DNA of 39,866 bases from NCBI GenBank assembly GCA_045586465.1, contig JAZNAI010000253.1, positions 1-39,866 of the forward strand, in the 5' to 3' direction. The notes under the pieces were generated by a model. The model did no database searches and had not been told where the DNA came from. It saw only the letters and a list, made by a program, of their open reading frames with translations. A program made the translations under genes and the position numbers. Origin of the DNA: Acutalibacteraceae bacterium. Its GTDB lineage: Bacteria > Bacillota > Clostridia > Oscillospirales > Acutalibacteraceae. Position 1 is the stretch's first letter. Every line of letters starts with the position of its first letter. Positions 25,841 through 37,561 of this stretch are shown piece by piece.

Positions 25841-26647
25841 ATGAATCTTATTAAATTTGACCCCGACGACAGCTTTTACTTTCACAAGGGCATAAGCAAG
25901 CGTGTTTCTGAAACAGGAACCTCCTGGCCTCATTATCACGGTCTTTATGAATTATATTTTATGCTTGAGGGCAATTGCACATACTTTATTGACAATAAGG
26001 TTTATAACGTTCAGCCGGGAGATATCGTAATTATTCCCGGGGGAACAATTCATCACACGAGATATGAGAATATAAAGCATTCGAGAATTCTTCTTAACTG
26101 CTCCGAAAAATATATTCCGTCGGCATTCATACCCGACACACCGGATAATAACTATCTTTACAGAAATCCTTATATTGCTGATGAAGCACAGAAAATATTT
26201 GAAAAAATTGAAAGCGAATATAAACGGAATGATTCACTTTCCGATGAAATACTTGTCTGTCATACAAATTCCCTGTTCTATCTTCTTATGAGGAATAAGG
26301 AATTCTGCATAAGAGTCGATGACAGCAACACCGTAATTGAAAAGGCAGTTGCATACATAAGGGAAAATTTCCGTTCGAATATAACTCTTTTATCTATTGC
26401 AAAAAAATTTTCAGTAAGCCCCGAGCATTTTTCAAGAACCTTCAAAAAGGAAACGGGCCTTGGCTTTTCGAAGTATCTGAACTCCTTAAGGCTTCAATAT
26501 GCAGAACAGCTTCTTCGAACCTCAAAGGAGCTGAATATTACACAGATTGCCGAATACTGCGGCTTTGAGGACAGTAATTACTTCTCAAAAAAATTTAAAG
26601 AAATTTACGGTGTTTCTCCGAAAAAAATGCAAAAAGGTACGAAATGA
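25841..26647 (+). CDS. AraC-family transcriptional regulator (cupin sensor + HTH)
   Basis: N-terminal cupin ('HYHGLYELYFMLEG...GDIVIIPGGTIH') and C-terminal double HTH ('SPEHFSRTFKKETGLGFSKY', 'GFEDSNYFSKKFKEIYGVSP'). It is divergent from the phosphoesterase-transporter unit. Confidence 0.85.
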   Translation: MNLIKFDPDDSFYFHKGISKRVSETGTSWPHYHGLYELYFMLEGNCTYFIDNKVYNVQPGDIVIIPGGTIHHTRYENIKHSRILLNCSEKYIPSAFIPDTPDNNYLYRNPYIADEAQKIFEKIESEYKRNDSLSDEILVCHTNSLFYLLMRNKEFCIRVDDSNTVIEKAVAYIRENFRSNITLLSIAKKFSVSPEHFSRTFKKETGLGFSKYLNSLRLQYAEQLLRTSKELNITQIAEYCGFEDSNYFSKKFKEIYGVSPKKMQKGTK

Positions 26648-26680: not shown

Positions 26681-27052
26681 TTATTTTTCTGATTTGTTTT
26701 GTGAGGCATTTTCCTTTTCCTCAAGGCGTATTTCCCAATGGATAATAACAGCCAGCAGAGCACGTATTACTATTACAACACCGAGAATTGCAAGCTCTTC
26801 AAGATCGTGGATTATAACGGTTTTTATAATCTCGGCACCCATCTTAAATTCAAGCGCAAGTGCCAATGCCTTACCAAGCTCAACAACTACATTCAGGGGC
26901 TGTTTTTTTATAAGACATCCTATTACTCGGAACAAAGCACGGAAAGAGCCTATAAAAATAATGACAATACCGATAAGCTCAAGTGTGCTTGCCGTAATTT
27001 CAGCAACAGGAAAAAGAAATTCCCTGAATAATACTGCAAAATTTTCAAGCAT
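26681..27052 (-). CDS. DUF1622-family small membrane protein
   Basis: Three or four TM helices. 'LELIGIVIIFIGSFRALFRV' and 'LGKALALALEFKMGAEIIKT' fit the DUF1622 pattern. It starts 14 nt after the apbE stop. Confidence 0.55.
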   Translation of the reverse strand: MLENFAVLFREFLFPVAEITASTLELIGIVIIFIGSFRALFRVIGCLIKKQPLNVVVELGKALALALEFKMGAEIIKTVIIHDLEELAILGVVIVIRALLAVIIHWEIRLEEKENASQNKSEK

Positions 27053-27066
27053 TTTGTGTACCTTCC

Positions 27067-28104
27067 TTATTTTTCATAGTTTTTCCAGCCTTCGGAATAT
27101 GTTTTTGTTCCGTCTTCACTTACCCACATAGCCTCTGCATCAGGCATCTCCTTAATAAGCTTCAAGCCTTCTTCAAGCGGCAGACAGAAAAGCGTTGTAG
27201 AAAGCACGTCGGCAAGTCCCGACTCCGTACATACAACAGAAACCGATAAAAAGCCCTCAGAAGGCATAAGCGTCTCGGGATGGATTATGTGATGATAGGG
27301 CTTTCCGTCAACGTAATAAAAACGCTGATATGAGCCGCTTGTAACGAGAGACTGACCGGAAAGTCCGAGATATGAAAGATAGTCTCCGCCGTCGGGATTT
27401 TCTATTCCCACAGTCCAGGGAGAGCCGTCTCCTTTTGTACCGATGCTGCGGACATTTCCGCCCACGTTCAGCACATACCCCGTAATGCCTCGTTCCTCAA
27501 GGTCTTTTGCTATACACTCAACAGCATAACCTTTTGCAACAGCCCCTACGTCAAGCTTCATTCCGGGGTCTGTCAGAGTAACAGTATTGTTTTCTTCATC
27601 AACAACCATTTTTTCAATATCGCAGTGAAGAGCTGCCTCTTTAAGCTTTTCCATAGGAGGAAGTGATGCTTCTGAAGGGTTATCCTTGCCTATTGTACGG
27701 TAATCATGCCACAAGGACAGAACGCTTCCCATTGCAACGTTCATAACACCGTCTGTCTTATAATACATTTCTTTTGCAAAAAGAAGCATATCAATAATGC
27801 GTCTGTCAACCGTTACGGTGCGATGCTCACCGTCTGTAAGCTCGTTTATGGTGCAAAGATTCTCCATTCCCTCAAATCTGTGATAAATGGAATAAAGGCG
27901 GTGATATTCACCCAAGTCAGACATAATTCCTTCTGCAACCTTATCAAAATCTTCCTGTGATTTTTCATACCCCGTTATTGTCGTAAGGGTATCAAAATAA
28001 TCCATTGTATAGGTTGAAAATTTTTCTTTATTCTCCGTGCAGGCACACAAGCTGCATACCAAAACACAAAGAATCACAGCAATACTTAAAATTCGTTTAA
28101 TCAT
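27067..28104 (-). CDS. apbE: FAD:protein FMN transferase (ApbE/Ftp family) lipoprotein
   Basis: Lipobox 'SLCAC'. ApbE signatures 'MDYFDT', 'DVGAVAKGYAV', 'NVGGNV', 'VTSGSYQR', 'HIIHPETL'. The start is either ATG 28104 or TTG 28110, with no clear SD. Confidence 0.85.
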   Translation of the reverse strand: MIKRILSIAVILCVLVCSLCACTENKEKFSTYTMDYFDTLTTITGYEKSQEDFDKVAEGIMSDLGEYHRLYSIYHRFEGMENLCTINELTDGEHRTVTVDRRIIDMLLFAKEMYYKTDGVMNVAMGSVLSLWHDYRTIGKDNPSEASLPPMEKLKEAALHCDIEKMVVDEENNTVTLTDPGMKLDVGAVAKGYAVECIAKDLEERGITGYVLNVGGNVRSIGTKGDGSPWTVGIENPDGGDYLSYLGLSGQSLVTSGSYQRFYYVDGKPYHHIIHPETLMPSEGFLSVSVVCTESGLADVLSTTLFCLPLEEGLKLIKEMPDAEAMWVSEDGTKTYSEGWKNYEK

Positions 28105-28120
28105 AGTCAATAAAACAAAA

Positions 28121-28142
28121 AGAGAGAGAAAATTCTCTCTCT
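28121..28142 (-). terminator. Intrinsic terminator between the lipoprotein gene and apbE
   Basis: Minus strand reads AGAGAGAGAA-TTTT-CTCTCTCT followed by TTTTTGTTTT. Confidence 0.6.
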
Positions 28143-28164
28143 TCTTTTAATCTGTTGAATTTAC

Positions 28165-29172
28165 TCAGATCTTGGAAGCAGCCTTAACAAAGCCGGAAAC
28201 AATGATTGTGCAGCCTGCAGTCTGAAGGTCTGCTACACCCTTACCGTCTTCAGCAACGAGAGTAGCAATTTCAGAAGCTGTCTTGCCAACGCAAGCAGCG
28301 TCAAAAGCAGCAGCCTGCTCGTTCCATTCCTTTGTTGCACCGCCGTAAGCTACCATACCGTAGTCAGCACCCTGAGTCTTCTTGGAAACAACTTCCTTAG
28401 TTGTGTCAAGAGTAGAAGCGCCGGCTGTTGTGAATGTGAAGGAAACCTCTACACAGTCGGAAGCACAAGCAACAACCTTGCCTTCAGCGTTAACAGCAGC
28501 AGCATAAACATATGTTGCAACCTTGTTTGAGCCATCCTTATCCTCTGTAGCATCTGTGCAGGTCTGCTCTGTAGCAGCTGTAACCTTAAGAGTATCCGCA
28601 GCTGTAACAGCAGATTCAGCAGCAGCATTGTAAGCCTTTTCGATAGCAGCGACGAATTCGTTGATCATAATTGTGCAGCCTGCAGCTACAACTTCATCAT
28701 TACCCTTGTTCTCTTCAGCAACAAGAGCCTTAACCTCGTCAAGAGTCTTGCCTGCAACGAGTGTTTCGAAAGCGTCAGCCTGCTCGAACCATTCCTTTGT
28801 TGCACCGCCGTAAGCTACCATGTTGTAGTCGTTACCAAGCTCGTACTTTGTCTTGAACTCTTCCTTAGCAACAGCCTTACCGTCAGCGGTAAAGTTTACT
28901 GTGTTGCTTGATGTGTCAAGAGCACATGAAACGATCTTGCCTTCTGCGTCAACAGTAACGGCAGCAACGGTTACATCAACCTTACCGGAACCGTCCTTAT
29001 CTTCTGTAGCATCTGTTACAGAAGGAGCAGTAACATATAAGCCTGAACCGAACTTAAGGGTTGTTTCTGTGGGAGCAGTTGTTTCTTCTGTGTTTGTTGT
29101 GTCACCGCAGCCTACGAACATTACGGAAACAGCCATAATGAGACATAATGCAATAACTAAAGCCTTTTTCAT
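28165..29172 (-). CDS. Lipoprotein with two tandem FMN_bind-like repeats (non-canonical AGCT motif)
   Basis: Signal peptide plus 'FVGC' lipobox. Two repeats of about 155 aa each contain 'DATEDKDGS.KV', 'V.AEGK(I/V)V.CA.D', 'MVAYGGATKEW.EQA.AF', 'GKT..E(V/I)..LVAE' and 'AGCTI'. GGAGG RBS. Confidence 0.6.
   Translation of the reverse strand: MKKALVIALCLIMAVSVMFVGCGDTTNTEETTAPTETTLKFGSGLYVTAPSVTDATEDKDGSGKVDVTVAAVTVDAEGKIVSCALDTSSNTVNFTADGKAVAKEEFKTKYELGNDYNMVAYGGATKEWFEQADAFETLVAGKTLDEVKALVAEENKGNDEVVAAGCTIMINEFVAAIEKAYNAAAESAVTAADTLKVTAATEQTCTDATEDKDGSNKVATYVYAAAVNAEGKVVACASDCVEVSFTFTTAGASTLDTTKEVVSKKTQGADYGMVAYGGATKEWNEQAAAFDAACVGKTASEIATLVAEDGKGVADLQTAGCTIIVSGFVKAASKI
28205..28821 (-). repeat. 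Internal gene duplication with a 465-nt period, preserved at nucleotide level over the motif-coding segments
   Basis: attgtgcagcctgcag occurs at 28205-28220 and 28670-28685. The 33-mer ccattcctttgttgcaccgccgtaagctaccat occurs at 28324-28356 and 28789-28821. Both pairs are exactly 465 nt (155 codons) apart. Confidence 0.85.
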
Positions 29173-29207: not shown

Positions 29208-29236
29208 ATATTACTATATATTAATAAAATTGTCAA
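29208..29236 (-). promoter_or_regulatory. Strong candidate promoter of the lipoprotein gene
   Basis: Minus strand reads consensus TTGACA (29236-29231), 17-nt spacer, TAATAT (29213-29208), about 35 nt upstream of the ATG at 29172. Confidence 0.55.
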
Positions 29237-29291: not shown

Positions 29292-29795
29292 TCATATTAA
29301 TTTGTCCGGAATACGCTTAATAAGCAAGGCTCCGCAAAGCCCTATAAATACACCTGCAACAGTTCCCGTAACAGCGAGAACCGCAAGATAATAACCAAGC
29401 TCTGATGTTTCCAGAAGAAGTGCAGCCATTATAATCTGTCCGATGTTATGAGCAACTCCGCCTGCCACACTTACTCCCACAGGAGAAAGGAAATTGAGCT
29501 TTCGGAGAATTATCATCACAAGAAGACTCAGCACACCGCCCGCAAGACTGTACATAAGTGCCATCATATTGCCGAAAAGCATACTCACAAGCAGAATTCT
29601 TACAAGAGAAACAATTCCCGCAAATACCGGACCTTTTCTGTAAAGGAGAAACACAATTATAATATTGGGAAGCCCCATTTTAATTCCCGGAAGTGATGTA
29701 AATAAAGGAGGAATCAGAACTTCTATGTAAGCGAATATCAATGCGAGTGCAACACATATACCGCCGAAGGCAACGGTTTTTGATTTCTTTTTCAC
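29292..29795 (-). CDS. Gx transporter family membrane protein (PF07456; historically mis-named heptaprenyl diphosphate synthase component I)
   Basis: 'VAFGGICVALALIFAYIEVLIP...PGIKMGLPNIIIVFLLY' and about 5 TM helices. GTG start with GGAGG 6 nt upstream. Confidence 0.65.
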   Translation of the reverse strand: MKKKSKTVAFGGICVALALIFAYIEVLIPPLFTSLPGIKMGLPNIIIVFLLYRKGPVFAGIVSLVRILLVSMLFGNMMALMYSLAGGVLSLLVMIILRKLNFLSPVGVSVAGGVAHNIGQIIMAALLLETSELGYYLAVLAVTGTVAGVFIGLCGALLIKRIPDKLI

Positions 29796-29805
29796 GCAAG
29801 ACCTC

Positions 29806-30207
29806 CTATATAATCACATCCGGGCCGTCCGTGCCGGCATCCCGGGTAACGGTAATTACAACACGGTTCGGAAGACATACGATGCTTTCACCGTCACGGA
29901 AAATACTCTTATGAGATACACATATTCCGTCGGGACAGGTAGCAGTTTCCATAAATGCCTTACCGTCCTTAATTACGAAACGGTTGTGATTCTCATTGTT
30001 GTCCCCGGAATAAATATCTTCGCATATATCCCGGGAAAGCGAATAAACTCCGTACACTTCCCCGTCAACCGTTACCGTAACAGAGTCCCCCGGACTGCGG
30101 AAAAAATTAAGATAAATAAGACCGATAACCGCCGCAAGAATTACGGCGGTAATCAGAATAATATCGTTCCTTAAGTTGTGATTTTTTTTATTTTCCCTGC
30201 TATTCAT
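29806..30207 (-). CDS. NusG domain II-containing membrane-anchored protein
   Basis: TM anchor, then 'VTVTVDGEVYGVYSL...RFVIKDGKAFMETATCPDGICVSHKSI...GESIVCLPNRVVITV' (NusG_II pattern with CPD.ICV...CLPN). The start is set at ATG 30207, 1 nt after the rnfB TGA. The longer track ORF overlaps rnfB. Confidence 0.7.
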   Translation of the reverse strand: MNSRENKKNHNLRNDIILITAVILAAVIGLIYLNFFRSPGDSVTVTVDGEVYGVYSLSRDICEDIYSGDNNENHNRFVIKDGKAFMETATCPDGICVSHKSIFRDGESIVCLPNRVVITVTRDAGTDGPDVII

Positions 30208-30208
30208 A

Positions 30209-31042
30209 TCAACTGAGCAGATCCTCACTGCTGACATCAGCAGGAATATCGGGGAAGAATGCCGTTTTGAGACAGCCCGTGGGACATTCCTTGACACAGG
30301 CTTCACAGTGAACACACTTTTCATAATCAATAACTGCACAGTTATCAATTACCTTTACAGCACCGTGAGGACAAGCCTTTTCGCACTTTTTACAGCCGAT
30401 ACAGGCATTTTTGCAAGCCTTCTTGGCATCAGCACCCTTCTGCTTGTTGCTGCACATTACAACAGTAGCAGTTTCCTGAGGAATCATATTGATAATTCCC
30501 TTGGGACAGGTTCTTGTGCAAAGACCGCAGCCGAGACAGCGTGCAGTATTAATATGAGCAATACCGTCCTTAATGCATATAGCCTTTGCAGGACAAGCAG
30601 CCGCACAATCGCCAAAACCGAGACAACCGAAACGGCAGGAATTATTACCGCCGTAAATCATTGCTGCGGCATAGCAGGAGCTTACACCCTCGTACTCTGC
30701 AATCTTGGAGGTTGCATCGCAGTTACCGTTGCAGGAAACAAATGCAACAACGTCCTTGAAGGGCTCAGCTTCAACACCGAGAATACCGCCGATTTCATCA
30801 GCAACACTCTGAGCGCCGGGAATACAGAGATTGGGAGCAACACCGCCCTCTGCAAGAGCAGCGGCATAGTCATCACAGCCCTTATATCCGCAGGCACCGC
30901 AGTTGATACCGGGAAGACAGGCACGGATTTCACCCTTAAGAGGATTCTCGGGTACAGAGAAGAAATGAGAAAATACGGTAATAAGAATACCTGCAACGAG
31001 GGCAACGCCTAACATTACGAGAAATGCAATTAAAATATCCAT
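30209..31042 (-). CDS. rnfB: Rnf electron-transport complex subunit B (polyferredoxin)
   Basis: N-terminal TM, then 'CLPGINCGACGYKGCDDYAAAL' and four CxxCxxCxxxCP ferredoxin motifs. Confidence 0.85.
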   Translation of the reverse strand: MDILIAFLVMLGVALVAGILITVFSHFFSVPENPLKGEIRACLPGINCGACGYKGCDDYAAALAEGGVAPNLCIPGAQSVADEIGGILGVEAEPFKDVVAFVSCNGNCDATSKIAEYEGVSSCYAAAMIYGGNNSCRFGCLGFGDCAAACPAKAICIKDGIAHINTARCLGCGLCTRTCPKGIINMIPQETATVVMCSNKQKGADAKKACKNACIGCKKCEKACPHGAVKVIDNCAVIDYEKCVHCEACVKECPTGCLKTAFFPDIPADVSSEDLLS

Positions 31043-31057
31043 CGTCCGTCCCCCTTA

Positions 31058-31657
31058 TCAAGCAAATATATTTTCAACAATACCGCTGAATCCCATAAAT
31101 GCAAGGGATATAAAGGAAGCAGCAATGAGAGTAACGGCAAGACCGCGGAAGGGTGCAGGTACCTTTGTATCGTCAATTCTTGAACGTATTCCGGAGAAAA
31201 GCACCATTGCAAGCAGGAAGCCGAGTCCGCAGCCCAGAGAGCTTACCATTGATTCAATAAAGCTGTAGCCGTCAATTATATTATTGATTGTAACACCGAG
31301 CACTGCACAGTTTGTTGTGATAAGAGGAAGGTAAACACCGAGTCCCTTATAAAGTGAAGGAGAGAACTTTTTAAGAACAAGCTCGAGAATCTGAACGAGA
31401 GTTGCAATTATAAGAATAAACGCAATATTCTGAAGATAACCGAGACCCAGAGTATCAAGAACGAATTTCTGAATGGGCCAGGTTGCAGCAGTTGCAAGAA
31501 GCATAACAACCGTTACGGCAACACCCATTCCTACTGCCTGATCGATTTTCTTGGAAACACCGAGGAAGGGACAGATACCTAAGAATCTGCTGAGAACATA
31601 GTTATCAACAAGCACGGATGAAAGAAGTATAATAATTAAAATCTTGAAGCTTTCCAT
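31058..31657 (-). CDS. rnfA: Rnf complex subunit A
   Basis: 'VLVDNYVLSRFLGICPFLGVSKK' and 'LPLITTNCAVLG' are canonical RnfA/NqrE motifs. Confidence 0.9.
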   Translation of the reverse strand: MESFKILIIILLSSVLVDNYVLSRFLGICPFLGVSKKIDQAVGMGVAVTVVMLLATAATWPIQKFVLDTLGLGYLQNIAFILIIATLVQILELVLKKFSPSLYKGLGVYLPLITTNCAVLGVTINNIIDGYSFIESMVSSLGCGLGFLLAMVLFSGIRSRIDDTKVPAPFRGLAVTLIAASFISLAFMGFSGIVENIFA

Positions 31658-32346
31658 CAGTTCTCATCTCCTTTCTCAGAGCAATTTCCGCCCTGACAAT
31701 TTGCCGCATTGGGACAGCCCTCACAAGAAAATGACTTTTTAAGAGGAGCTCTTCCGTGAGTAACGGCATAAATAAATGCAATAAGAAGTCCGTATACAAG
31801 AAGTCCGCCGGGTGCCTTTGTGAAAAATTCGATTTTGTAATTCTGAAGGAAGGGAATTTCAATTCCGAAGAATGAGCCTGCACCGAATACCTCACGGATT
31901 GTTGACATCATAGTAAGTGCAAGGGTAAAGCCGAGTCCCATACCGATACCGTCAAGAGCGGATGCAACAACACGGTTCTTGTTAGCAAACATTTCGGCAC
32001 GTCCGAGAATTATACAGTTAACGGTGATAAGGTCAAGATAAACACCGAGAGTCTCGTATAATTCGGGAAGATATGCCTGAACAAGCATTTTTACAATTGT
32101 AACGAAGCCTGCGATAATAACGATATAACAGGGAATTCGCATTGATTCGGGGATTTTCTTACGAAGAAGAGATATGAATACGTTTGAACAGATGAGAACA
32201 GCCATAGCTGCAAGTCCCATACCGACAGCACCCTTGACGCTGGTTGTTGTTGCAAGTGTGGGACAGGTGCCGAGAATGAGCACCAATACGGGATTTTCCT
32301 TCAGTATGCCGTTAAGCAGTACTGACATAGAGGATTTTTCTTTCAT
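31657..32346 (-). CDS. rnfE: Rnf complex subunit E, with a Cys-rich C-terminal tail
   Basis: 'LKENPVLVLILGTCPTLATTTS' and 'LITVNCIILGRAE' are RnfE/NqrD motifs. Extra tail 'SCEGCPNAANCQGGNCSEKGDEN'. Confidence 0.9.
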   Translation of the reverse strand: MKEKSSMSVLLNGILKENPVLVLILGTCPTLATTTSVKGAVGMGLAAMAVLICSNVFISLLRKKIPESMRIPCYIVIIAGFVTIVKMLVQAYLPELYETLGVYLDLITVNCIILGRAEMFANKNRVVASALDGIGMGLGFTLALTMMSTIREVFGAGSFFGIEIPFLQNYKIEFFTKAPGGLLVYGLLIAFIYAVTHGRAPLKKSFSCEGCPNAANCQGGNCSEKGDEN

Positions 32347-33524
32347 TATCGGGCACCTCCGTTCATAGTAGTGATTGCATTGAATGCACGCTCAATAGCC
32401 TGAGTGTAACCGTTTGTTGTTAAGGTTGCACCGCTTATAGCATCAATTTCCTTGTAGTTTTCGTCTGTTTTTCCTACAAACTGACTGTAGAAGCTTTCGT
32501 CTGCACAGGCGTCACCCAGTCCGTCGGTTTCAGCTTCGGAAACAGTAAGACAGTCAATAATTCTGAAATCGGGTGTTACGGAAACACGTACAATAATATA
32601 TTCGCCCGAAGCGGGATGGTATTCATCGCCGCCCTTAATACCGTAGCCTGCACCCTTTGTTTCAAGCACGAAGTTTCCGGAAGCGGTCTTCTTAGCAGAA
32701 ACTACAGTCTTTTCAAGACCTTCATAAGCAGAAATGTCAATATCCTCGAGTGTGCTTGCCTTGATTGCAGCAACAGCATCGCTATAAAGAGCCGTATCGG
32801 CAACGCCGTCGGTAACTACCGTACCGTCAGCATTCACACCGATGAACTGTTCACCGGAAACAAAAACATAGCCTGCCTTGTTTGTTGCTTCGTAAACTGC
32901 GTCAACACCTTCAATGAGTTCTACCATAAAGAGCTTTTCGAATGCCTTTTCACCTGCAGGGAATGCAGCATCCAGGTTATCTGCAAGAATTTCTTCCTCT
33001 GTACGGATATCAACAGAACCGCCGCCGAGGATAATTGCTGCATTAAGAGCATCCTTTACCGCATTCTTGTATGCCTCGGTAGTCTTTGTAGCACCCGAAA
33101 TAGTATCAACTGCTTCAACACCTGCGGCATCCTTATCGGTAAAGTTTTCACCGTAAGTTTTTTCTTTACTAAGGGTTTCATTAGAAGAAAGACATACGGC
33201 ACCTGTTACAACACCGTCTGAGCTTACGCCGCACATAATAACGAAATCTGAGCCGTAGCCTGCGGTAGTGAGCTTTACAACGTAACCGAGCCCCGATGTT
33301 TCTTTGTGTACTTCAGTTACTGTTGCAGGCAATGAAAAAGTGCTGATATCAGCTGTTTCAAAGCCCTTGCCCTCGGGCATTACCTCTAAAAGTGCAGCAT
33401 TGGCAGCCGCATTCTGATTTTCGGCAATAACGGGAGCAGTAATAAAGTTTGTAGCTGCAAGAAGTACGGTGATAACCGAGCAGATGCAGACAAAAACAGC
33501 AAGATTCTTAATGTAAGTTTTCAT
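32346..33524 (-). CDS. rnfG: Rnf complex subunit G with two FMN-binding domains (392 aa)
   Basis: N-terminal anchor. Two FMN_bind units end in 'VDTISGATKTTEAYKNAV' (T146) and 'IDAISGATLTTNGYTQAI' (T367). Confidence 0.8.
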   Translation of the reverse strand: MKTYIKNLAVFVCICSVITVLLAATNFITAPVIAENQNAAANAALLEVMPEGKGFETADISTFSLPATVTEVHKETSGLGYVVKLTTAGYGSDFVIMCGVSSDGVVTGAVCLSSNETLSKEKTYGENFTDKDAAGVEAVDTISGATKTTEAYKNAVKDALNAAIILGGGSVDIRTEEEILADNLDAAFPAGEKAFEKLFMVELIEGVDAVYEATNKAGYVFVSGEQFIGVNADGTVVTDGVADTALYSDAVAAIKASTLEDIDISAYEGLEKTVVSAKKTASGNFVLETKGAGYGIKGGDEYHPASGEYIIVRVSVTPDFRIIDCLTVSEAETDGLGDACADESFYSQFVGKTDENYKEIDAISGATLTTNGYTQAIERAFNAITTMNGGAR

Positions 33525-34441
33525 TCTTTATCTCCTCCTGCCGTAAATACCTTACGCTTTGTCCACTTGCAGATGTAAGGATTAAGTATGTTCATAAACA
33601 GAATTGCAAAGGAAACACCTTCGGGATAAGTTCCGAAATATCTGATAAGGCAGGTAAGAAGACCTGCGCCGAGGCCGAAGATAACCTTGCCCCAGGGGGT
33701 GTAGGGAGATGTTGTGTAATCTGTTGCCATAAAGATAGCACCGATAAATACACCGCCCGACATAAGAAGGGAAAGAGCACTTACGGCATCAAAGCCTTCC
33801 ATAAACAATGAGAAGAGGAATACCGTTCCGAGGAAAACGACGGGAATCTGCCAGGAAATAACACGTCTTACGAGAAGATAAACTCCGCCGATAAGTAAAG
33901 CTGCAACGCAGGTTTCACCTATAGCACCGCCGTGTCTGCCAAGGAACAAATCAAGAAGCCCGGGCATTTCTTCTGCTGAAAGAGGAGTAGCAGAAGAAAC
34001 GGAATCTACGGGGAATGAAGGCACAGCCATTGAGCCGAAGGCAACAAGCATAAACACACGTGCCGTAATTGCAGGGTTTACGAGGTTTGCACCGATTCCG
34101 CCGAAGAGGCATTTTACAACTATTATTGCAAAAAGTGAACCGACAGCGCACTGCCAGAGCGGAACGTCAACAGGAAGATTAAGAGCAAGAAGAAGACCCG
34201 TAACTGCAGCGGATAAATCCCCTACCGTCTGCTCCTTCTTTACAATAAGATTAAAAATTGCTTCAAATCCGACAGAGCAAGCAATACACACTGCAATTAC
34301 AAGAAGTGCACGCCAGCCGAATATTACCGTACCTGCAATAGTTGCGGGAAGTAATGCAATCAGAACGTCGCCCATAATACCGGAAGTGGATTTTCCGCTG
34401 TGAATATGGGGAGAAATCATTAATTTTGTAAGAGCACTCAT
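33521..34441 (-). CDS. rnfD: Rnf complex subunit D
   Basis: 'SPHIHS', polytopic, with a flavinylation-site region 'DSVSSATPLS' (T152). Confidence 0.9.
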   Translation of the reverse strand: MSALTKLMISPHIHSGKSTSGIMGDVLIALLPATIAGTVIFGWRALLVIAVCIACSVGFEAIFNLIVKKEQTVGDLSAAVTGLLLALNLPVDVPLWQCAVGSLFAIIVVKCLFGGIGANLVNPAITARVFMLVAFGSMAVPSFPVDSVSSATPLSAEEMPGLLDLFLGRHGGAIGETCVAALLIGGVYLLVRRVISWQIPVVFLGTVFLFSLFMEGFDAVSALSLLMSGGVFIGAIFMATDYTTSPYTPWGKVIFGLGAGLLTCLIRYFGTYPEGVSFAILFMNILNPYICKWTKRKVFTAGGDKE

Positions 34442-35757
34442 TATTTGCTTCCCTCCTTTGCTGCGTTATCCGCTAATAATTTTTTAGAGAGCTTGTTAAT
34501 CTGCACAAGAGGACGGTTTGCAGGACATACAAAGCTGCAGCAGCCGCATTCCATACAGGACTGAACGGAAAGAGCCTTTAATTCGTCCGTGTCCTCCTTT
34601 GAATAAGCCTCTGCTATATTTACGGGTGCAAGGCTGAAGGGACATGTGTTTACACAGGCACCGCAACGGATACAGGCTGTGGTTTTGGGAAGCTTTGCTT
34701 CCTTTTCTGAAAGAGCAAGAACTGCATTTGTGTTCTTAAGCACGGGAACATCGGCATTGGGAACGGTAATACCCATCATAGGACCGCCGTAAATGATTTT
34801 TGCAGGATCCTCTTTAAGACCGCCGCAGAAATCAAACAGTACATTAACGGGAGTACCTATGGGAGCTATCACGTTCTGAGGCTTCGTAACAGCTGCACCG
34901 TCCACAGTTACAAGCTTTTCCGTAAGAGGCATACCCGTTTTAAGGAAAGAACCTATCTGTGCAACAGTTGTGCTGTTAAGAACAATACATCCTACATCAA
35001 TAGGCAGCTTGTTTGCGGCAATCTTTCTGCCCGTGGTATGGTAAACCATAACCTTTTCTCCGCCCTGAGGGTACTTATCGGGAAGAACGCTTACCTTTAC
35101 TTCAAGCTCAGTAAGTGATGAAGCAAGAGACTGCATTGCAGAAACTACCTTTTTGTTGCCCTTTTCAACACCGATAATAACCTTTTTTACACCGAGGTAC
35201 TTATTGATAGCCTTAAGAGCCGCTGCCATATCATCGGCACGTGTCAGCATATTTACTGAGTCACTTGTAACGTAAGGCTCACATTCAGCACCGTTTACTA
35301 TAAGATATTCTATTTTTTCCGTGGGAACATCAAGTTTTACGTGTGTGGGGAAGCCTGCACCGCCAAGGCCCACTATACCGCTTTTCTTAACGGCCTCAAT
35401 AAAGCTGTCTCTGTCGCTGATAACGGGAGGAGCCACAGCTTCATCAACGGCATTTTCGCCGTCTGCCTCAATTATGACAGCAGTCGTGGTTTTGCCTGTG
35501 GCAAGAAGATAGTCCGTAAGCTTTGTAACCTTACCTGATATGCTCGCATAGATATCAGATGAAACTTTACCGTCAGCTTCACCTATTTTTGTTCCGATTT
35601 TAACCATATCTCCAACCTTTACAACAGGAGTTGCAGGCTTACCGATATGCATTGACATCGGAATTATTACAGTCTTCACGTCAGAAAGACGCTCAACGGG
35701 ACTGTCTTTGGTACCTTTTCTGTGGGGCGTGTGTATTCCGAGAAGATAAGAACCCAT
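34441..35757 (-). CDS. rnfC: Rnf complex subunit C (NADH/FMN/Fe-S binding)
   Basis: 'GIVGLGGAGFPTHVK', 'IVNGAECEPY', two 4Fe-4S motifs 'CIRCGACVNTCP' and 'CMECGCCSFVCP'. The start is either ATG 35757 (GAAAGG upstream) or ATG 35778. Confidence 0.85.
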   Translation of the reverse strand: MGSYLLGIHTPHRKGTKDSPVERLSDVKTVIIPMSMHIGKPATPVVKVGDMVKIGTKIGEADGKVSSDIYASISGKVTKLTDYLLATGKTTTAVIIEADGENAVDEAVAPPVISDRDSFIEAVKKSGIVGLGGAGFPTHVKLDVPTEKIEYLIVNGAECEPYVTSDSVNMLTRADDMAAALKAINKYLGVKKVIIGVEKGNKKVVSAMQSLASSLTELEVKVSVLPDKYPQGGEKVMVYHTTGRKIAANKLPIDVGCIVLNSTTVAQIGSFLKTGMPLTEKLVTVDGAAVTKPQNVIAPIGTPVNVLFDFCGGLKEDPAKIIYGGPMMGITVPNADVPVLKNTNAVLALSEKEAKLPKTTACIRCGACVNTCPFSLAPVNIAEAYSKEDTDELKALSVQSCMECGCCSFVCPANRPLVQINKLSKKLLADNAAKEGSK

Positions 35758-35946
35758 AAAAAATAAACCTTTCTTCATAATTTGTTATTATAGTATGCAT
35801 CCGCATAGATATACATATTAATAATAAGTCAAGAAAAAGGCAAAGTCAAGGAATAAGTTTGTTACTATTTTATCAATATCAGAAGCATATACAACAGACC
35901 CAAAATAATACATAAATCGTCGTACACAGAAAAAACCGATGAAGTA

Positions 35947-37020
35947 TTATTCACCGGTTTTTTCTCTTATATTTATTACGATATCTGCTCGTTTTTTTAT
36001 TTCCGTTTTTTCAAAATAGATATTTTCAAGAGGAATCCATTCTGAAAAGAAACGCTTTGCCAATGCAGGAGAATTTCTTTTTTCTATGCGTTTTTTCTGA
36101 AAATCAGGGGAAATATCAAGAAAAGCGGATAAATTATAGTACTTGCCGAAATCGGGATGCATCGAATAAACACCCTCAACAACCGTCAGTTTTTTCGGCG
36201 GGACACTTACCGTATCGCCGAGAGTCTGTAAAGAACAGTCAAAGGGTCTGTAATTTACTGTTTCATTTTTAACCAAGGAGCAAATAATTTCATCATAAAA
36301 ACGCTCTCTGTCAAAATTTCCGCCGATTTCACAAAAACGCTCGGGGGTACGCTGTTCAGGACGTAAAAAGAAATCGTCCGCATGGAAAATACTGCAGTCA
36401 TACACCGACGCCAAAACTTCCGAAAGCGTGGATTTTCCGCTTGCACTCCCACCCTCAATTGCAAGAATTGCATTCCCCTTCGGAAGTAATTTATCAATTT
36501 CAGCAAAAAGACGAATAAAATCAGAATACTTATTGTCAATTACCCTGTATGAAGGCTTATATGTGCTTCTGAAAACCTCGGAATGATGAATTGCAGGACA
36601 GCCTCTCCCCTGCCACTCAGCAAGCTCCTTTTCAAATTCCGCCTTATCAAGAGAAATTTCCCCGTTCAGTATAAGCTCACGGGCAATCTCAATTTTCTGC
36701 GAAAGCAAGGCTTTTCCGTCAGGCTCTTTCTTTGCTGAAAGACAGAATAATTTTGTCAGCGTTTCGGGGGAAAGTCCTGCATTTATCCACGAAAGGTAAA
36801 CCCGGCTGTAATTTCCGTCAAGGGCATCCGTAAAAGGCTCGGCAGCTTCTGACATTTCAGCAAATTCGTTCTTTATATACTGCAAAGCCGTGCCTTCATC
36901 CGTTACAAGATGCTCACAGCCGAATACACTCTGAAACAGAAATTTAAGAAGATCTTCCGCCTGCAGATTCGGGAAGTTTTTATAATGCTTCAACAGAAGC
37001 TCACGTGTGTTTTTATTCAT
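35947..37020 (-). CDS. Two-domain protein: unknown N-terminal domain (about 170 aa) + uridine-kinase/PRK-family P-loop kinase domain
   Basis: Walker A 'AIEGGSASGKSTL', 'FHADDFF', 'VVEGVY' in the C-terminal half. I do not recognise the N-terminal half ('LLKFLFQSVFGCEHLV...'). It starts 1 nt after the S-component stop. Confidence 0.5.
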   Translation of the reverse strand: MNKNTRELLLKHYKNFPNLQAEDLLKFLFQSVFGCEHLVTDEGTALQYIKNEFAEMSEAAEPFTDALDGNYSRVYLSWINAGLSPETLTKLFCLSAKKEPDGKALLSQKIEIARELILNGEISLDKAEFEKELAEWQGRGCPAIHHSEVFRSTYKPSYRVIDNKYSDFIRLFAEIDKLLPKGNAILAIEGGSASGKSTLSEVLASVYDCSIFHADDFFLRPEQRTPERFCEIGGNFDRERFYDEIICSLVKNETVNYRPFDCSLQTLGDTVSVPPKKLTVVEGVYSMHPDFGKYYNLSAFLDISPDFQKKRIEKRNSPALAKRFFSEWIPLENIYFEKTEIKKRADIVINIREKTGE

Positions 37021-37021
37021 T

Positions 37022-37561
37022 TCAGCCTCTCAGTTTAAGAATTTTGGGATTATCAAGAATCATTACTGCAACGGGAATAAGCACGAGCTGTACGATAATC
37101 CCCGGAACGGCTTCCGTAAGGGCACCGGCAAGGAAAGCCGAAAAAGTGAAAGCTCCGCCGTTTATGCTTAAAGCCGTAAACATAGCAGCACCCCACACAA
37201 GTCTTCCTGCAATCATAGCAACAAGAAGCGAAAGATAGATGTAAGGCTTCTTTCGGGGAAGAAATTTATGCATAAGTCCCGATACCGCACCGTAAGCGGC
37301 AAGCTCAAATGCCATACAGACCGCCACAGGAAAAAGCGGAGGCATACCGAGTGTCAGAGAACGGAAAAGCGGAGCTGTAAAGCCGACAGCCATCCCCCAA
37401 TGCCATCCGCACAGGAATCCGCAGAGAAGCACGGGAATGTGCATAGGGCAAAGCATTGAGCCGATTTCGGGAATCTGCCCCGTAAGAAAGGGCATCACAT
37501 AGGAAAGGGCAAGAAAGAATGCAGAGAGCACCATTTTAATAAGCCTTGAGTTGTTTTTCAT
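37022..37561 (-). CDS. ECF-transporter S-component-like membrane protein (PF12822-like), substrate unknown
   Basis: About 6 TM helices. 'LSAFFLALSYVMPFLTGQIP...CPMHIPVLLCGFLCGWHWGMAVGF..PL' is typical of S components. AAAGGAG RBS. Confidence 0.6.
   Translation of the reverse strand: MKNNSRLIKMVLSAFFLALSYVMPFLTGQIPEIGSMLCPMHIPVLLCGFLCGWHWGMAVGFTAPLFRSLTLGMPPLFPVAVCMAFELAAYGAVSGLMHKFLPRKKPYIYLSLLVAMIAGRLVWGAAMFTALSINGGAFTFSAFLAGALTEAVPGIIVQLVLIPVAVMILDNPKILKLRG

Follow-up and report, generated by a model that had tools for sequence, protein, structure and literature searches.

What is the function of a lipoprotein that resembles nothing annotated, and whose gene lies between the genes of a flavin adenine dinucleotide (FAD) exporter and apbE at the end of an rnf operon? 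This question is raised by a 335-amino-acid (aa) lipoprotein of an Acutalibacteraceae bacterium, encoded on a stretch of 39,866 nucleotides (nt) (assembly GCA_045586465.1, contig JAZNAI010000253.1), which was analysed as a whole and is called the window here. Searches of the protein against Pfam and NCBIfam gave nothing above noise, and sub-threshold matches to SPRY (23.3 bits, 27 residues), SPASM and BamJ (on the signal peptide) were dismissed as spurious. Homologues are nevertheless abundant, with more than 3500 in the close group (90%-identity clusters), none of which is annotated. A preliminary description of the locus had proposed that the protein consists of two domains of the type that binds flavin mononucleotide (FMN), in which AGCT takes the place of the SGAT flavinylation motif. 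Every sequence element named there (two copies of AGCT, two of MVAYGGATKEW, the DNA repeats and ApbE) was found in its place. In our analysis the two repeats were assigned, by sequence comparison, to divergent FMN_bind domains, and we consider it fairly probable that the protein is a lipid-anchored, extracytoplasmic di-FMN lipoprotein which is flavinylated by ApbE and branches electrons from Rnf.

Assignment of the repeats to the FMN_bind family

Self-alignment showed the two tandem repeats of about 155 aa that had been described, with 50% identity across 134 aa (BLASTP, E = 3e-38) and a period of 153-155 aa. The AlphaFold2 model of the full chain reached a predicted local distance difference test score (pLDDT) of 90 and a predicted template modelling score (pTM) of 0.85. 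Domain 1 was predicted to contain strands at residues 40-47, 61-74 and 80-94, followed by helices at 109-116, 128-139, 144-148, 159-163 and 171-183; domain 2 showed the same order of elements, and AGCT stood just ahead of the last helix in each. This order (strands, helices, and a motif before the last helix) is compatible with the FMN_bind fold as found in 3O6U, NqrC and RnfG. The pTM of the whole chain implies that, in the model, the two domains form one fixed compact unit. The putative lipid-anchored residue, C22, showed no exchange among orthologues, and for residues 18-35 the pLDDT fell under 50, as would suit a flexible tether.

The repeats can be tied to FMN_bind because of a bridge through the structure 2KZX, PF04205 matches in members of the family, the register of a profile-profile alignment, and canonical motifs in sister proteins. 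When the family profile was searched against the PDB, 2KZX was the sole match, with an E-value of 1e-6 for the whole protein and 2e-6 for a single-domain profile. In this alignment, Y.MV.YGGA..EW.EQA was common to both sides, and DAI-SGAT of 2KZX stood opposite ...DEVINAGCT of the family. The 71-residue segment of 2KZX that aligned to the family scored 25.8 bits on PF04205, whose gathering threshold is 22 bits. Two family members also scored above this threshold: P0243 with 25.4 bits over residues 63-174 (motifs D-V-D-I-L-S-G-C-T and T-D-L-T-S-G-C-T; 69 profile positions stretched over 112 residues), and P0255, which has AGCT in both domains, with 22.7 bits. A local FMN_bind hidden Markov model gave weak co-linear matches in many further members. 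The hhalign comparison with an alignment of RnfG FMN_bind domains was weak (P = 0.0025, probability 12%) and placed GKT on GKT and AGCT on SGAT.

At the position of AGCT, sister proteins read DADLASGAT, SSAT or STAT in odd-numbered domains and DADLASSVT in even-numbered ones. A domain of the SGAT type, used as a second homologue query, returned only 32 proteins, largely fragments, which served for comparing motifs and brought no annotation. The motif given for RnfG in the preliminary description was borne out by the RnfG of the neighbouring operon, which reads DTISGATKTTEAY and DAISGATLTTNGY. Judging from these comparisons, the repeats are divergent FMN_bind domains, homologous to that family though undetected by the current PF04205 model, and AGCT occupies the aligned position of the SGAT flavinylation motif. 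On both points the preliminary description is upheld, for the homology by the 2KZX bridge with the PF04205 matches of P0243 and P0255, and for the motif by the 2KZX alignment with the canonical DLASGAT at the equal position in sister proteins.

The family is large. An exhaustive search of 50%-identity representatives yielded 1366 clusters at E ≤ 1e-3, and members were spread over at least 551 GTDB species. Among 151 proteins whose domains were counted, 128 had two domains, 11 had four and 2 had six, odd counts being mainly fragments, while some members (P0237, P0218) were fused to a canonical PF04205 domain. Look-up of the clusters returned no annotation except "FMN-binding protein" for the fusion protein of Feifania hominis.

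Conservation of the AGCT motif and the candidate acceptor residue

The motif reads D159-E-V-V-A-A-G-C-T167 in repeat 1 and D315-L-Q-T-A-G-C-T322 in repeat 2. Among 49 close orthologues, the A, G and C of repeat 1 were invariant and its T was present in 48, while the motif of repeat 2 was unchanged in all 49; AGCT was present in both repeats of all 80 genome orthologues described below. For a wider view, a motif census was taken of 328 domains out of 150 representatives. AGCT was found in 180 of these domains, followed by ASVT (25), ASCS or ASCT (16 together), SGCT (15), SSVT (13) and TGCT (6), and a few domains read SGAT, AGAT, ASAT or ATAT. The final residue was nearly always T or S, and the residue before it was C, then V, then A or T. 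Since the final T or S is near-constant while position -1 varies among C, V, A and T, the conserved feature of the motif appears from the census to be the hydroxyl residue, with Cys as one of several small residues tolerated.

Two further proposals of the preliminary description did not hold against these data. A Cys-specific linkage had been suggested, and it was dismissed as the function of the family on the exchange of C, V and A, the Cys being replaced by Val, Ala or Thr in sister clades. The tripeptide GGAT within MVAYGGATKEW had been named as another candidate acceptor, and was abandoned on the variability of its Thr, since in close orthologues T125 was exchanged among V, T, K, A and E and T280 among T, A, E and K. 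Other residues in and around this element, namely Y116, M118, E127, W128 and Q131, were at least 90% conserved family-wide, and are good candidates, inferred from conservation, for an isoalloxazine pocket.

Pairing of the lipoprotein gene with apbE

Gene order was compared in 80 loci from GTDB genomes with orthologues of 51-86% identity, which belonged to Acutalibacteraceae, Oscillospiraceae, Lachnospiraceae and other Clostridia. The order rnfCDGEAB, eetA, eetB, lipoprotein, apbE was found in nearly all of them. The lipoprotein-apbE pair was conserved in 79 of the 80 genomes, and in 75 of 79 loci apbE lay 47-259 bp downstream of the lipoprotein gene. In three loci (L007, L010 and L015) the pair was shifted as a unit to the front of rnfC. 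The adjacency of ApbE that had been noted in the window is thus real, its gene being a clear PF02424 member (Table 1), and the pair is highly conserved. The lipoprotein is also extracytoplasmic and encoded beside apbE, which is how Meheust et al. 2021 operationally defined an ApbE substrate.

Distant members of the family were also found beside ApbE. P0122, with six ASVT domains, was followed by ApbE, and so were P0282 (SSAT plus SSVT) and P0218 of Feifania hominis, in which a canonical FMN_bind domain precedes two SSVT domains. The neighbours were ApbE and then RnfC for P0127 (four AQCS domains), and ApbE and then RnfCDG for P0180 (four domains, SKAS/STVT/SKAS/ATVT), while P0121 (four AGCT domains) stands between EetB and ApbE. 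The single-domain P0300 (TSVT) had ApbE adjacent and no Rnf nearby, and P0168 (four AGCT domains) had ApbE next, then a flavodiiron protein and rubredoxin, with no Rnf within 7.5-8 kb. No ApbE was found near P0257 and P0243, which lie on short contigs. That family members pair with ApbE independently of Rnf speaks more strongly than any other finding for the domains being ApbE clients.

Some loci are of interest in themselves. At L096 (7568-12660), a 760-aa protein with four AGCT domains has downstream neighbours that are, in order, ApbE, a flavodiiron protein (ODP/Lactamase_B plus flavodoxin) and rubredoxin, with no Rnf nearby, which suggests a possible tie of the domain family to the detoxification of oxygen or nitric oxide. 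At L081 (3189-6419) and L088 (9046-12265), relatives lie beside ApbE, RnfC, RnfD, RnfG and a 145-aa unknown protein, RnfE, RnfA and RnfB not being called; these reduced clusters may represent an Rnf-like complex of different composition.

Proposed function and alternative explanations

We propose the following scheme. FAD would be exported by the EetA/EetB-type exporter encoded just upstream; EetB has been described as the FAD-binding subunit of a FAD exporter that supplies ApbE, and was co-localised with Rnf in 572 Clostridia genomes (PMC9973259). The ApbE encoded downstream would then transfer the FMN moiety onto T167 and T322, the acceptor Thr being the last residue of a variant motif, (D/E)-[VIL]-x-x-A-G-C-T, in place of D-x-x-[S/T]-G-A-[S/T], and the Y..M...EW..Q element would line the flavin pocket. 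The di-flavin lipoprotein, placed beside an Rnf complex whose RnfG has an extra FMN domain, could trade electrons in either direction with the outward-facing Rnf flavins, and its own flavins would form a branch from Rnf to extracytoplasmic acceptors. Covalent flavinylation at the Thr, the role of the Tyr and Trp residues in the pocket, and electron transfer with its partner are what we infer here.

Several points weigh against this scheme. The window lipoprotein itself had no PF04205 match even at E ≤ 10, so that the profile search proposed in the preliminary description failed on the window protein and succeeded on its relatives P0243 and P0255. When the two-domain model was compared with the PDB by Foldseek, as had also been proposed there, neither RnfG nor NqrC nor another FMN_bind structure was matched significantly (best E = 0.028, all TM scores under 0.2), and 2KZX was not recovered. 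We read this outcome as neither supporting nor refuting the fold assignment. ApbE is needed in this operon anyway for RnfG and RnfD, and adjacency in the window is by itself no proof that the lipoprotein is a substrate. The flavin on family members is a prediction, and the electron-transfer partner is deduced from gene order alone.

The motif, finally, departs from canonical D-x-x-[S/T]-G-A-[S/T] at three places, with the acidic residue at -7 (E160, D315) and not at -6, Ala at -3 and Cys at -1. Gly(-2) and Thr(0) of the canonical motif are retained in both repeats. Because mutations of a canonical site are partly tolerated, A-to-V and G-to-A leaving about 50% flavinylation and D-to-A having a minor effect (review PMC12052999), the variant motif of the window is, by analogy, plausibly still a substrate of ApbE.

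The lipoprotein might instead be a non-covalent flavin carrier or chaperone, derived from FMN_bind without being an ApbE substrate, which would pass FAD or FMN at the surface to ApbE for the maturation of RnfG and RnfD. It would then belong to a flavin-trafficking module made up of eetA, eetB, the lipoprotein gene and apbE, outside the electron path. The gene is flanked by those of the FAD exporter and by apbE, which are all maturation factors, as would be expected of a carrier, the three non-canonical motif positions would be explained, and the conserved Thr could equally bind phosphate. However, the versions with four and six domains, and the members fused to a canonical FMN_bind domain, suggest an electron wire more than a carrier, sister domains have a fully canonical DLASGAT at the equal position, and lipoprotein-ApbE pairs such as P0300 and P0168 occur with neither eetAB nor Rnf nearby. 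With this evidence on both sides, we regard a carrier as unlikely.

A second alternative gives the invariant Cys the functional role, as a cysteinyl-flavin bond, a flavin-thiol adduct, a metal or iron-sulfur ligand or a persulfide, and makes the Thr secondary. Neither repeat shows any exchange of the Cys among the 49 close homologues or the 80 genome orthologues, and Cys is the majority residue at -1 in the wider family. Cys-specific chemistry is nevertheless made highly improbable by the interchange of C, V, A and T at this position, since sister clades with an ApbE neighbour carry Val, Ala, Thr or Ile there (ASVT, SSVT, SGAT, ATTT, AGIT) and always keep the Thr or Ser, and no second Cys that could act as a partner is conserved across the family. 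A solute-binding or structural role for a lipoprotein unrelated to FMN_bind and resembling it superficially, as the lack of Pfam and NCBIfam matches and the empty Foldseek result could be taken to mean, is scarcely credible in view of the members that pass the PF04205 threshold along the full domain, the significant link to 2KZX, the consistent alignment register and the family-wide adjacency of ApbE.

Identity of the repeats at the DNA level

A 33-mer and a 16-mer each recur exactly in the lipoprotein gene, the two copies 465 nt apart in both cases, as had been reported together with the suggestion of strong constraint or gene conversion on precisely these segments. The identities stand, and the inference drawn from them proved weak. 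Of the 65 positions at which the repeats agree in amino acid, 47 (72%) also agree in codon, and the longest run of shared codons, 17, spans the 33-mer (p = 0.028 by shuffling). The 33-mer was identical between repeats in only 3 of 45 orthologues. A conserved DNA element was dismissed on these grounds, the 33-mer being perfect in so few orthologues and codon sharing being 72% throughout.

Comparison of the 33-nt segments in the 45 orthologues showed that repeats 1 and 2 differ by 3.8 nt within a genome and by about 6.2 nt between genomes, whether repeat 1 was compared with repeat 1 or with repeat 2. In addition, residue 125/280 was equal in both repeats of 27 of 61 homologues, compared to about 12.5 expected (T/T 13, A/A 7, K/K 6, E/E 1). 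The agreement at this residue and the closer segments within genomes hint at intragenic gene conversion or a symmetric contact. Taken as a whole, the comparison hints at a modest signal of occasional gene conversion within the gene, added to the effects of amino-acid constraint and codon bias.

Features of the locus

The features of the locus are listed in Table 1.

Table 1. Features in the window around the lipoprotein gene, in order of position
Feature	Position	Strand	Basis or remark
AraC-family regulator (cupin + HTH_18), divergent from the end of the cluster	25841-26647	+	
DUF1622 small membrane protein, conserved last gene of the cluster	26681..27052	-	PF07784, E = 7e-16
ApbE, FAD:protein FMN transferase, itself a lipoprotein (LCAC lipobox)	27067..28110	-	PF02424, E = 3e-67
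AT-rich 13-bp hairpin between lipoprotein stop and apbE start, terminator-like or attenuating	28117..28146	-	Consensus scan only
Lipoprotein gene, 335 aa, ATG start	28165..29172	-	Open reading frame list; signal peptide with lipobox, Thr/Glu-rich linker, two FMN-bind2-like domains
Domain 2, aa 193-335	28168..28596	-	Self-alignment
AGCT motif 2, aa 319-322, T322 predicted FMN acceptor	28207..28218	-	Orthologue conservation
MVAYGGATKEW element 2, aa 273-283	28324..28356	-	Exact 33-nt copy of element 1
Domain 1, aa 38-184	28621..29061	-	Self-alignment
AGCT motif 1, aa 164-167, T167 predicted FMN acceptor	28672..28683	-	Aligned on SGAT of 2KZX
MVAYGGATKEW element 1, aa 118-128	28789..28821	-	Probable flavin-pocket element, not an acceptor site
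Signal peptide and lipobox, aa 1-22, MKKALVIALCLIMAVSVMFVG-C22 (lipobox MFVG-C22)	29107..29172	-	By eye on sequence
Promoter-like TTGACA-17-TAATAT, within the 119-nt gap ahead of the lipoprotein gene	29208..29236	-	Consensus scan only
EetB homologue, FAD-binding ECF-S-like subunit of a FAD exporter	29292..29795	-	PF07456, E = 6e-36; function per PMC9973259
EetA-like NusG_II membrane protein	29806..30207	-	PF07009, E = 6.6e-27
rnfCDGEAB operon	30209..35778	-	Pfam and NCBIfam matches
RnfG, 392 aa, two FMN_bind domains, canonical DTISGAT at 143 and DAISGAT at 364	32346-33524	-	
ECF-transporter S component (PF12822, 179 aa) and 357-aa protein without Pfam match, upstream of rnfC	35947-37561	-	

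Downstream, apbE follows the lipoprotein gene at a distance of 55 nt. The hairpin in this gap and the promoter-like site ahead of the lipoprotein gene suggest that the lipoprotein may be transcribed separately from apbE, and more strongly. For the EetA-like gene, the listed open reading frame (29806..30348) has TTG as its start codon and shares 140 nt with the end of rnfB; its true start is probably the ATG of M48 at 30207, 2 nt past the last base of the rnfB stop codon.

The DUF1622 gene was found 11-55 bp past apbE in 44 of the 80 loci. In 7 others it stands ahead of rnfC, about 9 kb upstream, and in Feifania hominis it immediately precedes rnfC. Genes at the two flanks were rarely kept. An AraC gene also adjoins DUF1622-rnf in Feifania hominis (L094), and the regulator was found by tblastn in only 3 of the 80 loci, and the pair of the S component and the 357-aa protein was likewise kept in only 3 of 80. 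This S component of the energy-coupling factor (ECF) type may import a vitamin or flavin.

Repeat 2 of the lipoprotein holds two further Cys residues, C240 (in SDCVE) and C294 (in AACVGKT). C240 shows no exchange in close orthologues, conservation of C294 there is at least 90%, and both Cys recur at these columns in many domains of the family.

Implications

The assignment provides a testable annotation for a very large family of "hypothetical" lipoproteins in gut and rumen Clostridia. If T167 and T322 are flavinylated, the ApbE motif would widen to include Cys or Val at -1, Ala at -3 and a shifted Asp; surveys based on [S/T]GA[S/T] sites or PF04205 matches would then have overlooked the AGCT class, and the design of flavin tags would gain freedom of sequence. 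The constant place of the lipoprotein gene behind the rnf genes suggests that anaerobes without quinones and cytochromes possess a hitherto unrecognised accessory or branch point of Rnf, a matter of relevance to how such anaerobes dispose of electrons outside the cell.

A bolder extension can point to one pair of a protein with four AGCT domains and ApbE beside a flavodiiron protein and rubredoxin. Here [A/S]-G-C-T would mark a distinct class of ApbE targets, in which the thiol tunes or shares the redox chemistry, for example through thiol-flavin exchange of electrons with extracellular thiols or oxygen, and this abundant lipoprotein would be the missing electron outlet of Rnf in gut Clostridia that have neither quinones nor cytochromes, coupling the pools of ferredoxin and reduced nicotinamide adenine dinucleotide (NADH) to extracellular acceptors or oxygen scavenging. 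We think it improbable that this extension holds.

Comparison with known systems

The closest counterpart by description is FMN-bind2, reported by Huang, Meheust, Barquera and Light 2024 in mSystems (PMC11334425) with NTW96865.1 of an Erysipelotrichaceae bacterium as an example. The published domain, which carries insertions relative to FMN-bind1, has about 160 aa, compared to a repeat period of 153-155 here, occurs in even copy numbers, is extracytoplasmic, and has no InterPro or Pfam entry, all of which is also the case for the window family. Two FMN-bind2 domains are predicted to pair through their sheets into a pseudo-symmetric unit with two sites; the model of the window protein is one compact unit with high pTM. 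The lipoprotein fits FMN-bind2, matched by description of domain size, even counts and the compact two-domain model. The published site is however the canonical [S/T]GA[S/T], whereas it is AGCT here and ASVT or SSVT in sister clades, and the link to an rnf-eetAB-apbE operon is absent from the published description. In a full-text literature search FMN-bind2 appeared only in the 2024 paper, and nothing was found on an Rnf-linked lipoprotein of such kind; the AGCT-type motif is not described in the literature for FMN-bind2.

The preliminary description had drawn a parallel with PplA of Listeria monocytogenes. The parallel stands for architecture, as PplA is also a surface lipoprotein with two flavin domains and is encoded with eetA/eetB and the ApbE-type FmnB. 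It does not extend to family membership, since the lipoprotein had no match to the PplA model NF041941 at E ≤ 1. PplA differs further in having short type 1 canonical FMN_bind domains with SGAT-type motifs, and in receiving its electrons from Ndh2 and demethylmenaquinone and not from Rnf.

2KZX, an uncharacterized protein of 131 aa, which we take to be a nuclear magnetic resonance structure from Clostridium thermocellum, shares with the lipoprotein Y.MV.YGGA..EW.EQA and the C-terminal loop-helix, and differs from it in consisting of a single domain with canonical DAISGAT.

The RnfG encoded in the window, with its two canonical motifs, is by its sequence a predicted multi-flavinylated RnfG as described by Meheust et al. 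2021 in eLife (PMC8238504), who found extra extracytoplasmic flavin domains with Rnf and proposed that they provide a second electron path to outside acceptors. The lipoprotein differs from that arrangement in that its predicted extra flavin domains are carried on a separate protein, belong to another FMN_bind subtype, and have a variant motif.

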